Source: Eubacteriales bacterium
Lineage (GTDB): Bacteria; Bacillota; Clostridia; Oscillospirales; CAG-382
Direction: 5' to 3'
Length of the DNA: 64,000 nucleotides
NCBI GenBank assembly: GCA_045657425.1
Contig: JAZOTA010000045.1
Coordinates: 48,705 to 112,704 of the forward strand
Position 1 is the first letter of the stretch. Each line of letters begins with the position of its first letter. This document shows, piece after piece, positions 5,191 to 60,752 of the stretch. The translations under genes were made by a program, and so were the position numbers. The notes under the pieces are model-generated. The model had not been told where the DNA came from, ran no database searches, and saw only the letters and a list, made by a program, of their open reading frames with translations.

Positions 5191-6258
5191 TTACGCTTTG
5201 AGATATTTCTTAAGCGAAATGCTGGAGGAAACGATACCTGCGAAAAGACCGATCGCAACGAAGCCGATGCCGACCACGAGTGCATAATCGCTCCAAAAAT
5301 CGCCTGCGGTTATCGCCGCAACACCGGTTGTACCTATCGAGGATTGAACGATGCCCTTGAGCAGATACTCGTAAAGATAATATTCGATGCCGAAGGAAAT
5401 CGCCGCAGATACGGTACCGATAATAACGCCTTCAACGATAAAGGGCATACGGATGAAGCTCTTTGTCGCACCGCAAAGACGCATAAAGGTAATTTCGTTT
5501 TTTCTTGCGAAAACACCCAACTTAATGGTGTTCATAATAACAAACAGAGAGATAATAAGGAAAATTGCCATAAGCCAAAGACCTGCAACGTAAAGCGCGT
5601 TTTTGATGCTCATTACGTTTTCGTAAAGCTCGGCATGGTCCTTGATATCCTCGGTCGAGATAGCATCGTGCTCGGTTCCGTTTGCGTCGACAAAGGTGAT
5701 CGAGTCGATACGGTTGCGAACCTTAACCACCTCGTCGAAGTTTGAAAGGTTGATAAAGGTAATACGGAAGCTTCCGCGGAGAGGGTTATCGGTCATCGAG
5801 CTTGTGATACCTGCGTGGGTACCCTCGTCGTGATCGTCCTCGTGCTTGTCGGTAAAAGCGTCAAACCAGGGTTGGTCTTCGTATTTATCCTCGAAATTTT
5901 CAAAATGCTCATCGGGCGAAACGTATTTAAAGTTTTCGTCCTTGGGGATGATGATATCATCGGTCCATTTGTCGCTTGTCCAATCGATAATAGGCGAATC
6001 GTTGCAAATTTTTGCCAATTTTTCGCCGATGTCGATAATTTCGGTTTCGCTGTAGTCCTTGTCCATCATCACTTCGATAACGTTAAGGTCGTCAATAGCG
6101 TTAAAGTTTCTGTCGATAGTGTCGATAACCACGAAAAACGTGCCGACAAGTATCATACAGGCGATAAGGACCAAAATCGAAGCGGTGGACATAACGCTGT
6201 TTCGGAAAACGCCCTTAAAGCCCTGACCTAAGTTGTAGAAAAATACGCTCGGCTTCAT
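5191..6258 (-). CDS. ftsX: Cell-division ABC transporter permease-like protein FtsX
   Basis: 355 aa with the FtsX N-terminus (..FRNSVMSTASILVLIA..), a large extracellular domain and a C-terminal 3-TM FtsX permease module. It overlaps ftsE by 4 nt. Confidence 0.88.
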   Translation of the reverse strand: MKPSVFFYNLGQGFKGVFRNSVMSTASILVLIACMILVGTFFVVIDTIDRNFNAIDDLNVIEVMMDKDYSETEIIDIGEKLAKICNDSPIIDWTSDKWTDDIIIPKDENFKYVSPDEHFENFEDKYEDQPWFDAFTDKHEDDHDEGTHAGITSSMTDNPLRGSFRITFINLSNFDEVVKVRNRIDSITFVDANGTEHDAISTEDIKDHAELYENVMSIKNALYVAGLWLMAIFLIISLFVIMNTIKLGVFARKNEITFMRLCGATKSFIRMPFIVEGVIIGTVSAAISFGIEYYLYEYLLKGIVQSSIGTTGVAAITAGDFWSDYALVVGIGFVAIGLFAGIVSSSISLKKYLKA

Positions 6259-10952: not shown

Positions 10953-11123
10953 TAAAAGCAACTCCTATTTTAAACTGCGATTATTATATACCAAAAAGGA
11001 TAATAAGTCAATCTTTGTCGATGCGTGTCGGACGAAAGTTTAAAATGCTATTGACTTTTTTGGGGGTTGGTTGTAGAATATAAATGCAAATAATGCAAAT
11101 ACTTATTGTGCCGGAGGTTATTT

Positions 11124-11414
11124 ATGGCCGATAATTTTGACAGAGAAAATATCTTCACTCTCACCGATGAGGAAGGAAACGAAAGCGAATTCGAGCTTTT
11201 GGGCGAGCTTAATATTGACGATAATACATATTTAGCTCTCATTCCGCTTGACGGCGATGAAGATGAATACGTTATCCTTAAAGTAGAGGTCGACGAAAAC
11301 GGCGACGAGCTTTTGGTCACCATCGACGATGATGATGAATTCGATAAGGTTGCCGATGCTTTTGAAGATACCTTCATGGGCGAAATCGATCTTGACGGCT
11401 CTGTAGAAGAGTAA
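11124..11414 (+). CDS. DUF1292 family small acidic protein
   Basis: ..TLTDEEGNESEFELLGELNIDDNTYLALIP..DEYVILKV.. is typical of DUF1292. GGAGG RBS. TTGACT-N17-TAGAAT promoter at 11051-11079. Confidence 0.8.
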   Translation: MADNFDRENIFTLTDEEGNESEFELLGELNIDDNTYLALIPLDGDEDEYVILKVEVDENGDELLVTIDDDDEFDKVADAFEDTFMGEIDLDGSVEE

Positions 11415-11440
11415 TCGTAAAAAAACAGTATCTTTTTGAT

Positions 11441-11716
11441 ACTCCAACCTGCGGGGTACGTGCGTTACGGGTCTTTGACCCAATAACCGCTGCCTCGTGT
11501 AAAAACCCACAAGAAAGAAAGGGAGCTCATATTCCGCTGTGGTGAAGCAGGCCTCCCGCATGCATTCTGCGTGCGGACGTTGGAAGCACTAAAGCATCGG
11601 AGAGGGCACCCACCTGCACAAAGCAGGGTTTCATTCTCACGGGGGCACGGCCCATGCGGGGGATAAAAACGTATAATTTTTAAGAGAATCGGGCATACCG
11701 ATTCTTTTGACTTTTT
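11441..11716 (+). ncRNA. Unclassified structured RNA candidate (cis-regulatory leader of the M20 gene, or a stand-alone ncRNA; strand uncertain)
   Basis: The IGR is GC-rich and packed with helices (11469-81, 11556-76, 11613-27, 11643-53). A C-rich hub at 11552-62 has three alternative G-rich partners. It ends in an 11-bp terminator hairpin at 11682-11708 plus a U-tract. Three helices contain G-U pairs only when read on the + strand. Confidence 0.35.
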
Positions 11717-11724
11717 GGTGGATT

Positions 11725-12867
11725 ATGAAAAATATTTTTGAATTTATCGATAACAACGAGCAGAAGTTTCTTTCCTTTTGGGAGGATATTTGTAATTTAG
11801 AGGGCGTTGCCGAGGACAAGGCTTCGCTTGATAAGGTTGCCGATAAAATCCAAAATTTCGCAAGTGAGCTCGGTCTTTTTGTAAACCGCATTCCTTTTGA
11901 CAATTGCGGTGATTTTTTGGTTATCGATACAAAACAAAACGCAAACAAGGGCGTTTGCTTCCTTGCGCATATGGATACTGTACATAAAAACGGAGCTTTC
12001 GGATATCCGCCCGTTAAAAACGAGGGTGACCGATTGATAGGCCCCGGTGTTATCGACTGCAAGGGCGGTATTGCAATCGCTTTGCTTGCCATGAAGGCGC
12101 TTGAAATCAACGGATACGAAAATAACTGCCGTTTGCTTTTAACCTCCGACGAGGAAATAAGCAACCGTTTGGGCGGCGAAAAGGAAATGCAGATCATCCG
12201 CGATTCGGTTAAAGGCTACAAGGCGGCGTTTAATTGCGAGGTCGCGGGGGTTGACGAGGTCGTCGTTTCGCGCAAGGGTATATTGCGCTATAAGCTTGAA
12301 ATTTCGGGAATTGCATCCCACGCAGGCATCGATTATTTTTCGGGCGCAAGTGCGGTTCGCGAGGCGGCGTACAAGATACTCGCGCTTGAGTCACTCAGCA
12401 CCGACGGCGGCACTACCTTTAACTGCGGAATAATCAACGGCGGACAATTGACGAATATCGTCCCCGAAAAATGCGAGATATTTATCGACGTCCGCGTGAA
12501 GGATCGTGATGCTATGCAGGAAGCGATTAAAACGCTCGAAGCCGAAGCCGAAAAGGTATACGTTTCGGGCACGAAGACCAAGCTTTGCTTTATCAGCAAG
12601 CGCGAGCCGATGCTGCGTAACGAGGACACCGAAAAGCTGTTTTTGCATCTTAAAAATATTTCTGACAAATATTCGCTCGGCAATCTTATCCCCATCGAAA
12701 GCGGTGGCGGAAGCGATTCGGCATATACCCAGCTTGCGGGAGTTCCGAGCGTTTGCGCAGTCGGCGCGACCGGTGATTTTTGCCACACCACGCGCGAATA
12801 TGCAAATATTTCGTCGCTCACAACCCGTGCAAAGCTGCTTTCTGCCGCAACCGTCGAAATGGAATAG
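11725..12867 (+). CDS. M20 family metallopeptidase (carboxypeptidase G2 / glutamate carboxypeptidase-like)
   Basis: ..CFLAHMDTVH..GPGVIDCKGGIA..LLLTSDEEI.. and a C-terminal ..GGGSDSAY.. match M20 metal-binding motifs. The start is set at the ATG at 11725; the ORF track begins at a TTG at 11707 inside the terminator tail. Confidence 0.85.
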   Translation: MKNIFEFIDNNEQKFLSFWEDICNLEGVAEDKASLDKVADKIQNFASELGLFVNRIPFDNCGDFLVIDTKQNANKGVCFLAHMDTVHKNGAFGYPPVKNEGDRLIGPGVIDCKGGIAIALLAMKALEINGYENNCRLLLTSDEEISNRLGGEKEMQIIRDSVKGYKAAFNCEVAGVDEVVVSRKGILRYKLEISGIASHAGIDYFSGASAVREAAYKILALESLSTDGGTTFNCGIINGGQLTNIVPEKCEIFIDVRVKDRDAMQEAIKTLEAEAEKVYVSGTKTKLCFISKREPMLRNEDTEKLFLHLKNISDKYSLGNLIPIESGGGSDSAYTQLAGVPSVCAVGATGDFCHTTREYANISSLTTRAKLLSAATVEME

Positions 12868-32625: not shown

Positions 32626-33402
32626 ATGGAAAAACCGAGGGTGTTAGTGGCTGATTCTAACAGCGATTTCAGAAATCAGTGTGTGCAAAGTCTTAAACGG
32701 CTGGATATAGAGGTTGTGGCAGAGGCGGCAGACGGTCAGGAAGCATTTGCAAAGATAGCGAGAACCAAACCGAACGTGGTCGTGTCCGACCTTTATCTCG
32801 GCAAAATCGACGGCGTTGGTATTATCCGCAGTGCGAAAAAGCAAATGCCGGACGATTTTCCCGCCTTCATAATGCTCGCATCGTTTACAAGCCAGAATCT
32901 GTTCGAGGAATGCTGTGAGGCAGGTGCGGCATACTGTATGCTCAAGCCGATCGATTTTAATGCGCTTGCCGACAGAATAAAGCGTCTTGCCGACAAAACA
33001 CGCCGCCGTGGAAACGCAAAGGTTCCGGGCAGAGAAAACGGTGATCTTGAGGCACAGGTGACGAAAATAATACATCAAATAGGTGTGCCTGCGCACATAA
33101 AGGGATACCAATACTTACGAACGGCGATAATAATGGCGATAAACGATACCGAGGTCATCAATTCGGTAACAAAGGTGCTTTATCCCACCGTTGCAAAGCA
33201 ATACGGAACGACAAGCTCGCGCGTTGAACGAGCTATACGCCATGCAATTGAGGTTGCTTGGGACAGAGGCGACCTTGACGTGCTTAATTCCTTCTTCGGC
33301 TATACCGTTCAGAATTCACGCGGCAAGCCCACCAATTCGGAATTTATTGCGATGATCGCCGACAATTTGCGTCTTAAAAACAAAGCGTTTGCAACGGTTT
33401 AA
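32626..33402 (+). CDS. spo0A: Sporulation master regulator Spo0A
   Basis: Receiver domain plus the diagnostic Spo0A C-terminal domain (..[56 protein letters not shown]..). Confidence 0.96.
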
Positions 33403-33499: not shown

Positions 33500-33619
33500 T
33501 GACTTATTAAGTTATTTGTGTTAAACTCTCATTTGCCGCATGTATGGGGTTTTTGAAGTTGCGTGCAGAACGCACACCCTCTAAGCAGCGAGTCTTATGA
33601 AAGGAATTGGTGCTTACAA
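33500..33619 (+). promoter_or_regulatory. rplU promoter plus 5' leader (possible L21-leader type autoregulatory element)
   Basis: TTGACT (33500-05) with TAAACT about 17 nt downstream. The roughly 90-nt leader has short helices (GGGGU/ACCCU, GUGC/GCAC). L21 leaders are described in Firmicutes; a match is not verified. Confidence 0.35.
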
Positions 33620-60552: not shown

Positions 60553-60641
60553 GCCGGAGTGGCGGAATTGGCAGACGCCCTGGACTTAAAATCCAGTGAG
60601 GTTTACCCCTCGTACCGGTTCGAGCCCGGTTTCCGGCACCA
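60553..60641 (+). tRNA. tRNA-Leu (anticodon UAA), class II with a long variable arm; CCA encoded
   Basis: Folded by hand. Acceptor GCCGGAG/TTCCGGC, D arm GCG..CGC, anticodon stem CTGGA/TCCAG with loop CTTAAAA, variable arm GAGG..CCTC, T arm ACCGG-TTCGAGC-CCGGT. Confidence 0.92.

Positions 60642-60676: not shown

Positions 60677-60752
<76 letters not shown>

Follow-up and report, generated by a model that had tools for sequence, protein, structure and literature searches.

A probable 6S RNA gene, scoring below the Rfam gathering threshold, between DUF1292 and M20 peptidase genes of a Clostridia bacterium

Introduction

We report that a stretch of DNA from a Eubacteriales bacterium (contig JAZOTA010000045.1; 64,000 nucleotides in all, and called the window below) very probably contains a gene for 6S RNA (SsrS), a member of Rfam family RF00013. 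The gene is on the + strand, at positions 11443-11664. For this assignment, which comes from sequence comparison and predicted structure, we estimate a probability of roughly 0.93. 6S RNA is a rod-shaped small RNA, about 200 nucleotides (nt) long, which sequesters RNA polymerase as a mimic of an open promoter. In the window, it occupies a spacer that runs from the stop codon of a DUF1292 gene (11412-14) to the ATG of a gene for an M20-family peptidase (11725-27). An earlier note on this DNA had described the spacer as GC-rich and helix-dense. It had taken the RNA to be an unclassified, riboswitch-like leader of the M20 gene or, failing that, a stand-alone non-coding RNA (ncRNA).

Results

An RF00013 match in the DUF1292-M20 spacer

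When the whole window was scanned with Rfam gathering thresholds, there was no match in the spacer region. A scan of 11350-11800 with E-value thresholds aligned RF00013 with 11443-11664 of the + strand. The match is untruncated, covers model positions 1-187 of 187, and scores 43.4 bits. Its E-value is 1.4e-7 for the region (a 451-nt search) and 2e-5 for the whole 64-kilobase (kb) window. In an E-value scan of all 64 kb, the match ranks third, behind two tRNAs, and is confined to the + strand. No riboswitch or leader family in Rfam matched 11350-11800, at E-values up to 10, and 6S was the sole significant match there. Hence, the view that the RNA is unclassified, with no match to 6S, has to be given up: RF00013 aligns with it from end to end and, as described below, copies from relatives pass the gathering score. 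The earlier note had proposed a scan with all Rfam models as a check, and had named a confident hit to a known family as grounds for dropping its candidate. The scan found RF00013, so the candidate falls on those terms.

The cmscan alignment contains a 23-nt insertion, at 11474-96, and has 21 nt at the apical loop, compared to 5 in the model. Included in the inserted 23 nt is the GGGUC-UUU-GACCC hairpin (11469-81). In two of the related loci introduced below (L003 and L004), absence of this hairpin is the main difference from the window, and both score 55.4 bits. We therefore attribute the sub-threshold score of the window copy to an insertion in a variable region, rather than to a different RNA.

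The RNA in related loci

Using the M20 protein as a query, we found 10 loci with the same gene order (L001-L009 and L011). These are in metagenome assemblies labelled as uncultured Eubacteriales, Clostridia, or Oscillospiraceae; where a source is named, it is water-buffalo gut. Five further metagenome loci (L022-L026) were identified with a pattern of two blocks from the invariant core of the RNA. RF00013 was above its gathering score at the same position in 11 of the 15 related loci, with 47.5-65.1 bits. The 11 comprise L003-L007, L009, and L011, where 6S lies just upstream of M20 (51.6-65.1 bits), and L022-L025 (47.5-57.3 bits). The other four, L001, L002, L008, and L026, score 42.1-43.4 bits and are under the gathering score, with L026 at 43.4.

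All related copies align with the window RNA along its whole length, and the core is invariant. This includes the central bubble and its flanks (GUGUAAAAACCCACAA and CACCCACCUGCACA); GUGUAAAAACCCACAA is constant in 13 sequences. In the same genomes, identity of the neighbouring M20 protein is down to 52-75%. The bubble, the flanking helices, and the template for a predicted product RNA (pRNA; see below) have thus stayed invariant while M20 diverged. We conclude that there is strong purifying selection on the 6S functional core.

Such selection bears on whether the RNA still works as 6S. Conceivably, it is derived from 6S or resembles it, but does not act on RNA polymerase any more and is now an element in the 3′ untranslated region (UTR) of the DUF1292 mRNA. 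It might, for example, stabilise the mRNA, or it might be a degenerate 6S in a genome that has its functional copy at another locus. Scores are indeed below the threshold in the window and its three closest relatives, the RNA abuts the DUF1292 stop codon, and the genome beyond the 64-kb window lay outside the search. However, both the functional core and the predicted pRNA template are invariant where M20 is not, an insertion in a variable region accounts for the missing bits, and copies at this position in more distant relatives do reach the gathering score. A 3′ UTR element of this kind is therefore very unlikely, and we continue to treat the RNA as 6S.

A rod-shaped fold with compensatory changes

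The minimum free energy fold, the RNAalifold consensus, and the Rfam 6S structure threaded on the window agree on a rod, with a closing stem, a large central bubble, and an apical stem-loop. Threading yields 43 standard pairs out of 49. Note that the Rfam consensus structure was derived independently of these sequences. Pairs were counted in an alignment (A3) of 13 distinct homologues. Across these, 84.1% of cells pair for the Rfam pairs, compared to 38-51% if the 3′ partners are slid by 1-3 columns. Compensatory changes, affecting both sides, occur in 9 pairs, against 0-3 in the slid controls. On 4 of 5 measures, none of 500 shuffles reached the observed value, a control that overstates significance for related sequences and is not a probability.

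Folding energies point the same way. The + strand of 11443-11664 folds at -91 kcal/mol (z -3.25) and 0 of 200 shuffles fold equally well. For the - strand, z is -0.29 and 70 of 200 shuffles are equally good. GC content is 0.497 for 11415-11724, 0.577 for 11443-11664, and 0.456 for the whole window; among long gaps, in a crude gap list from greedily chosen open reading frames (ORFs), the spacer has the highest GC. Hence, the earlier note was right to call the spacer GC-rich and helix-dense, and to place a structured RNA on the + strand. Several conserved G-U pairs would be A-C mismatches on the other strand.

The same data argue against an ncRNA on the - strand, ending at AGUAUC-AAAAA-GAUACU plus U7 (11443 down to 11419). 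A hairpin followed by U7 does exist there. However, as a terminator it is weak (-5.6 kcal/mol), and it is absent from L005-L011. Moreover, the - strand folds no better than shuffles, the conserved G-U pairs would be lost, RF00013 matches the + strand only, and no convincing Rfam match was found on the - strand of 11443-11664. We find such an RNA scarcely credible. The idea of a stand-alone ncRNA was thus nearer the truth than that of a leader, but not in antisense orientation, since the fold and the RF00013 match are on the + strand.

The hairpin that prompted the antisense idea can be read on either strand. At 11427-11443, it has the form AGUAUC-UUUUU-GAUACU, with 6 pairs, and is accompanied by A7 on the + strand or U7 on the - strand. 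Among the loci compared, it occurs only in the window and L001-L004, the closest relatives. No minus-strand gene ends at 11427-43. The hairpin might be a processing site or a weak antisense terminator.

Positions of all features are listed in Table 1, and every string quoted in the earlier note lies where it had been placed. In the closing stem (helix 1), 92% of cells are paired and 3 pairs are compensatory (for example, G-C to A-U at 11455/11652). Next to it, the lineage-variable insertion carries a small hairpin that differs between most lineages. Its stem is GGGUC/GACCC in the window, GGGCA/UGCCC in L002, AGAGC/GCUCU in L009, and CUGCCG/CGGCAG in L024 and L025. L005-L007, L022, and L023 have GCC-UUCG-GGC, with a UUCG tetraloop. 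L003 and L004 lack the hairpin of the window. The segment 11464-92 is too rich in indels for alignment-based pair counts. Judged by these sequences, the usual 6S rod has gained the variable side hairpin specifically in this clade.

Pairs in the middle stem are standard save in one or two sequences, and there are several one-sided C-G/U-G changes. The apical arm (helix 3) has 88% of cells paired and 6 compensatory pairs. Of all helices, support is strongest for the apical hairpin within this arm (11556-63 with 11569-76): 97% of cells are paired, 5 of 8 pairs are compensatory, and the count of 20 compensatory cells was equalled by 0 of 500 shuffles. In the 3′-bubble hairpin, the stem is invariant and one loop base varies. 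The two outer pairs of this hairpin compete with the middle stem.

Four of the five helices picked out in the earlier note can now be recognised as parts of 6S, namely the side hairpin, the apical hairpin, the 3′-bubble hairpin, and a part of the 3′ strand of the closing stem. The exception is UCCAAC/GUUGGA, which had been proposed as a closing helix. This helix lacks covariation and, with the fourth pair disrupted in 8 of 12 homologues, is not conserved.

The pattern of change is also relevant to a small protein-coding gene in the spacer, such as the 42-amino-acid minus-strand ORF at 11527-11655. Short ORFs do overlap the region in a mechanical ORF list. However, related loci carry frame-breaking indels (a 13-nt apical-loop insertion in L005-L007 and L011, and one of 22 nt in L024 and L025), and the substitutions are paired compensatory changes within helices. 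The likelihood of a coding gene is therefore negligible.

Table 1. Features of the DUF1292-6S-M20 region. Positions are those of the window.
Feature	Position	Strand	Basis or remark
Promoter-like site, sigma-A type, TTGACT-17-TAGAAT	11051..11079	+	10 of 12 consensus matches
DUF1292 gene, 96 amino acids	11124..11414	+	Pfam PF06949, E 6.5e-19
6S RNA (SsrS) gene, probable	11443..11664	+	Rfam alignment bounds, not mapped mature ends
Closing stem	11448-63 with 11645-60, plus two pairs 11444-45 with 11661-62	+	Fold, consensus, threading
Lineage-variable insertion	11464-92	+	Bulges from 5′ strand between closing and middle stems; 3′ strand continuous
Middle ('downstream', P2-like) stem, part 1, CCUCGUG/CACGGGG	11493-99 with 11638-44	+	RNAalifold consensus
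Middle stem, part 2, AAACCC/GGGUUU	11503-08 with 11626-31	+	RNAalifold consensus
Central bubble, 5′ strand, purine-rich, ACAAGAAAGAAA	11509-20	+	Unpaired in Rfam threading and RNAalifold
Apical (internal) arm	11521-11611	+	Includes hairpin CCGCAUGC-AUUCU-GCGUGCGG (11556-76)
Central bubble, 3′ strand	11612-25	+	Carries hairpin CCUGC-ACAAA-GCAGG (11613-27)
Intrinsic terminator	11680..11716	+	13-pair hairpin then CUUUUU; terminator scan; -16.7 kcal/mol
M20-family peptidase gene	11725..12867	+	Pfam PF01546 and PF07687
GGGUCUUUGACCC	11469-81	+	Quoted string, located
CCGCAUGCAUUCUGCGUGCGG	11556-76	+	Quoted string, located
CCUGCACAAAGCAGG	11613-27	+	Quoted string, located
GGGCACGGCCC	11643-53	+	Quoted string, located
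UCCAAC and GUUGGA	11443-48 and 11579-84	+	Quoted strings, located
CCUCCCGCAUG	11552-62	+	C-rich; three G-rich partners also located
Hairpin, then GACUUUUU	11682-11708 (hairpin)	+	Quoted string, located

Transcription and neighbouring genes

According to tblastn, each of the 15 related loci has DUF1292 directly upstream of the RNA. RsmE adjoins DUF1292, on the opposite strand, wherever that flank is present. The locus order is thus rsmE / DUF1292 / 6S, with a divergent rsmE/DUF1292 spacer. In L005-L007, a few nucleotides separate the DUF1292 stop codon from the 6S 5′ end. On the other side, M20 is missing downstream of the RNA in L022, L023, and L024 (3 of 15 loci). The next ORF after the RNA is on the opposite strand in L024, and a convergent gene follows in L023. 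Because DUF1292 is always upstream, while the downstream gene differs, we group the RNA with DUF1292 and not with M20. Judged by gene order, M20 is a neighbour, and not a target that the RNA regulates; the proposal of an M20 leader is not sustained.

Upstream of DUF1292, promoter-like sequences TTGAC[A/T]-17-TA[A/G/T]AAT, matching 10-12 of 12 consensus positions, are found at the same distance in all 16 sequences (the window and 15 loci). Further along the + strand, from 11080 to 11706, there are zero promoter-like sites with at least 9 of 12 matches. Similarly, a search of the + strand between DUF1292 and the RNA found no terminator made of a hairpin and T-run. We rejected two candidates for a promoter of the RNA's own. 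For TTGACG, at 11392-97, a usable -10 element is absent and the site is not conserved. TATAAT, at 11672-77, is without a -35 element, occurs only in the window, L001, L003, L004, and L026, and is upstream of the terminator.

A separate observation concerns the divergent spacer. Just upstream of the -35 element, which can be rendered CTATTGAC[A/T], there is a semi-conserved block, TGTCG...ACGAAAGTT[T/G]AAAA. From its sequence and position, this block is a candidate for an UP element or for a regulator site.

Downstream of 6S, a hairpin and T-run were present in all 14 related loci for which downstream sequence was read. The terminator sequence is unrelated in L008, L009, L022, L023, and L024, and the terminator is weak in L008. 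It is kept even where the next gene is convergent. By this comparison, the role of 11680-11716 is to terminate the 6S transcript, not to serve a riboswitch as expression platform. Hence, the hairpin and U-run ahead of M20 had been correctly read as an intrinsic terminator in the earlier note, but its role as an expression platform does not stand, since it ends the 6S transcript even when a convergent gene follows.

From the arrangement of these signals, 6S is probably co-transcribed with DUF1292 from the conserved promoter. The transcript would run from the promoter (11051-79), through DUF1292 and 6S, to the terminator (11680-11716), and 6S would be trimmed at its 5′ end. Expression of M20 would depend mostly on terminator read-through. 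Trimming of 6S precursors is known from B. subtilis, where RNase J1 carries it out, and from E. coli, where the enzymes are RNases E and G (PMC10578484).

Pairings that compete with the rod

The C-rich segment CCUCCCGCAUG can pair with three G-rich partners, and the earlier note took this as the mark of a conformational switch. The corresponding model is a riboswitch-like M20 leader, in which ligand-dependent alternative pairings of CCUCCCGCAUG control the terminator at 11682-11716. Such pairings do occur in the window sequence. In addition, there is a structured + strand RNA directly upstream of M20, and a terminator just before the M20 ribosome binding site.

The alternative pairings are, however, not conserved. 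The pairing of 11553-62 with 11653-62 persists only in its CCCGC/GCGGG core, which is invariant; many homologues have broken outer pairs, and compensatory changes are no more numerous than in shuffles. The pairing with 11450-56 uses the same invariant core and was not counted separately. At 11557, where C changes to U, the apical hairpin partner has a compensating G-to-A change in 4 of 5 sequences, while the alternative partner stays G in 5 of 5. Furthermore, we found no RNA segment that competes with the terminator stem. The 6S model covers the element over its full length, linkage to M20 fails (no M20 gene follows in L022 or L024, and a convergent gene comes next in L023), and the interval between DUF1292 and the RNA, just a few nucleotides in L005-L007, has no promoter-like site. 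Together, these points make a ligand-dependent switch highly improbable, and we return to 6S. In 6S RNAs, mutually exclusive pairings belong to product-RNA-driven release, not to ligand sensing.

A candidate product RNA and predicted release of the polymerase

By analogy with known 6S RNAs, the RNA would take the place of promoter DNA on the sigma-A RNA polymerase holoenzyme and sequester the enzyme. Upon nutrient upshift, polymerase would transcribe a short pRNA off the 5′ bubble strand. The predicted pRNA is 5′-GUGGGUUUUUACAC..., starting opposite C11510 (5′ end GUGGGUUUUU), and both it and its template are identical in all 13 sequences. PMC8414754 describes two hallmarks of pRNAs: an A immediately 3′ of the site where they start, and GG as their nucleotides 4/5. 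The predicted pRNA has both.

Extension of the pRNA into the middle stem would unwind it, liberating GGGUUU...; specifically, displacement of 11497-11510 would free GGGUUUCAUUCU. The freed strand would allow the 3′-bubble hairpin, CCUGC/GCAGG, to close completely. It may also form a 'central bubble collapse helix', of 11512-20 with 11629-37. Release of the polymerase would follow. In the window, 8 of the 9 pairs of the collapse helix can form and, in the alignment, 83% of cells pair, compared to 33-53% when partners are slid. For a collapse helix, these sequence comparisons are suggestive only.

Further RNA elements

The only Rfam matches above gathering thresholds in the window are two tRNA genes, at 60553-60638 and 60677-60749 on the + strand. 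A match to L21_leader (RF00559), at 33527-33605 on the + strand, scores 33.8 bits, compared to a gathering score of 36, with an E-value of 0.0054. We take the ORF directly downstream to encode ribosomal protein L21; the next two presumably encode a Prp-type processing protease and L27. The L21_leader match is probably a second real RNA element under its gathering threshold. In L011, a Gut-1 RNA (RF01706; 65.9 bits) lies at 5520-5590, on the - strand, a few hundred bases downstream of M20. Rfam scans of the window found no Gut-1 RNA. Finally, the C-terminal part of the ORF at 32626-33402 (+) presumably corresponds to the sporulation regulator Spo0A. If true, this suggests an endospore-forming Firmicute, and would fit the Clostridia and Oscillospiraceae labels of the related metagenome-assembled genomes.

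Discussion

Several observations weigh against our assignment, or against the models of transcription and release that accompany it. Taken alone, the window copy fails the curated cut-off by 3 bits (43.4 bits, against a gathering score of 46.4). The 13 homologues are closely related and many pairs never vary. In particular, the bubble, the stem of the 3′-bubble hairpin, and much of the middle stem carry no covariation signal because they are invariant, and the helix adjoining the bubble has zero compensatory changes. The collapse helix has one compensatory pair only (A-U to U-A, in L005, L022, and L023) and is broken in L009. We infer co-transcription from there being no recognisable promoter or terminator between DUF1292 and 6S. 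Lastly, uniqueness as 6S was judged within 64 kb, where there is no second RF00013 match at E-values up to 0.05. We nevertheless set aside the unmet gathering score because the match is full-length and significant, the deficit falls in a variable insertion, and the relatives' copies pass.

Firmicutes 6S-1-type RNAs are rods with an open 5′ bubble strand, a small hairpin preformed in the 3′ bubble strand, and a collapse helix; the 3′ central-bubble hairpin has been described in free RNA, for B. subtilis 6S-1 and for Firmicutes 6S-1-type RNAs (PMC8876501). The bubble architecture of the window RNA is of this type. Like B. subtilis 6S-1 (BsrA), it has the rod fold, a purine-rich open 5′ bubble strand, and a preformed 3′-bubble hairpin, and possibly also the central-bubble collapse helix. 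In E. coli, by contrast, the 3′-bubble hairpin forms only after pRNA synthesis. The window RNA differs from the usual 6S in being ~222 nt, rather than ~190-200 nt, and in having an extra side hairpin on the 5′ strand and a longer apical hairpin. It also abuts the DUF1292 stop codon and is without a recognisable promoter of its own. These differences from textbook 6S are minor. The RNA, if correctly assigned, is an ordinary 6S RNA, and leaves established knowledge of 6S unchallenged.

The genetic setting can be compared with others. As for the 6S of C. acetobutylicum (PMC3879012), an intrinsic terminator follows the RNA. In lactic acid bacteria the order is rarA-6S-uspA (PMC8414754), whereas here it is rsmE / DUF1292 / 6S. 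In the ssrS-ygfA arrangement of E. coli, too, 6S lies directly upstream of a protein gene in the same orientation, and expression of that gene has to pass the 6S 3′-end signal. This signal is Rho-dependent in E. coli, rather than an intrinsic terminator as here. The window also differs from E. coli in having a protein gene (DUF1292) upstream in the putative transcript and, downstream, an M20 peptidase gene that other members of the clade do not all share. Terminator-type riboswitches and leaders, including ydaO, resemble the window in having a structured RNA, then an intrinsic terminator, upstream of a gene. They differ in that, here, there is no match to their Rfam families, no linkage to a downstream gene, and no conserved alternative pairing.

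DUF1292 is described as a small acidic protein and is uncharacterised; the clade is of uncultured gut Clostridia and Oscillospiraceae-like. A literature search for a link of DUF1292 (yrzB) with 6S RNA turned up a single paper, in which '6S RNA' and 'yrzB' occur once each. Possibly, 6S is not a stand-alone gene in this clade, but matures from the 3′ end of a DUF1292 mRNA made from the one near-consensus promoter, and the pairing of the two reflects a functional tie of DUF1292 to 6S or RNA polymerase, for instance in processing, stability, or release, with the variable hairpin an added handle. We offer this tentatively and consider it doubtful.

A pass with Rfam at gathering thresholds leaves the window region, and its three closest relatives, without an annotated 6S. 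Because 6S is missed in this way, the region can be mistaken for a new riboswitch. The gene is recovered if the threshold is relaxed and synteny is taken into account, as was done in a study of lactic acid bacteria (PMC8414754). For specialists in 6S, the locus offers a variable extra hairpin between the closing and middle stems. More broadly, the conserved order of promoter, DUF1292, 6S, and terminator suggests that, in this clade, 6S may be made as the 3′ part of an mRNA.

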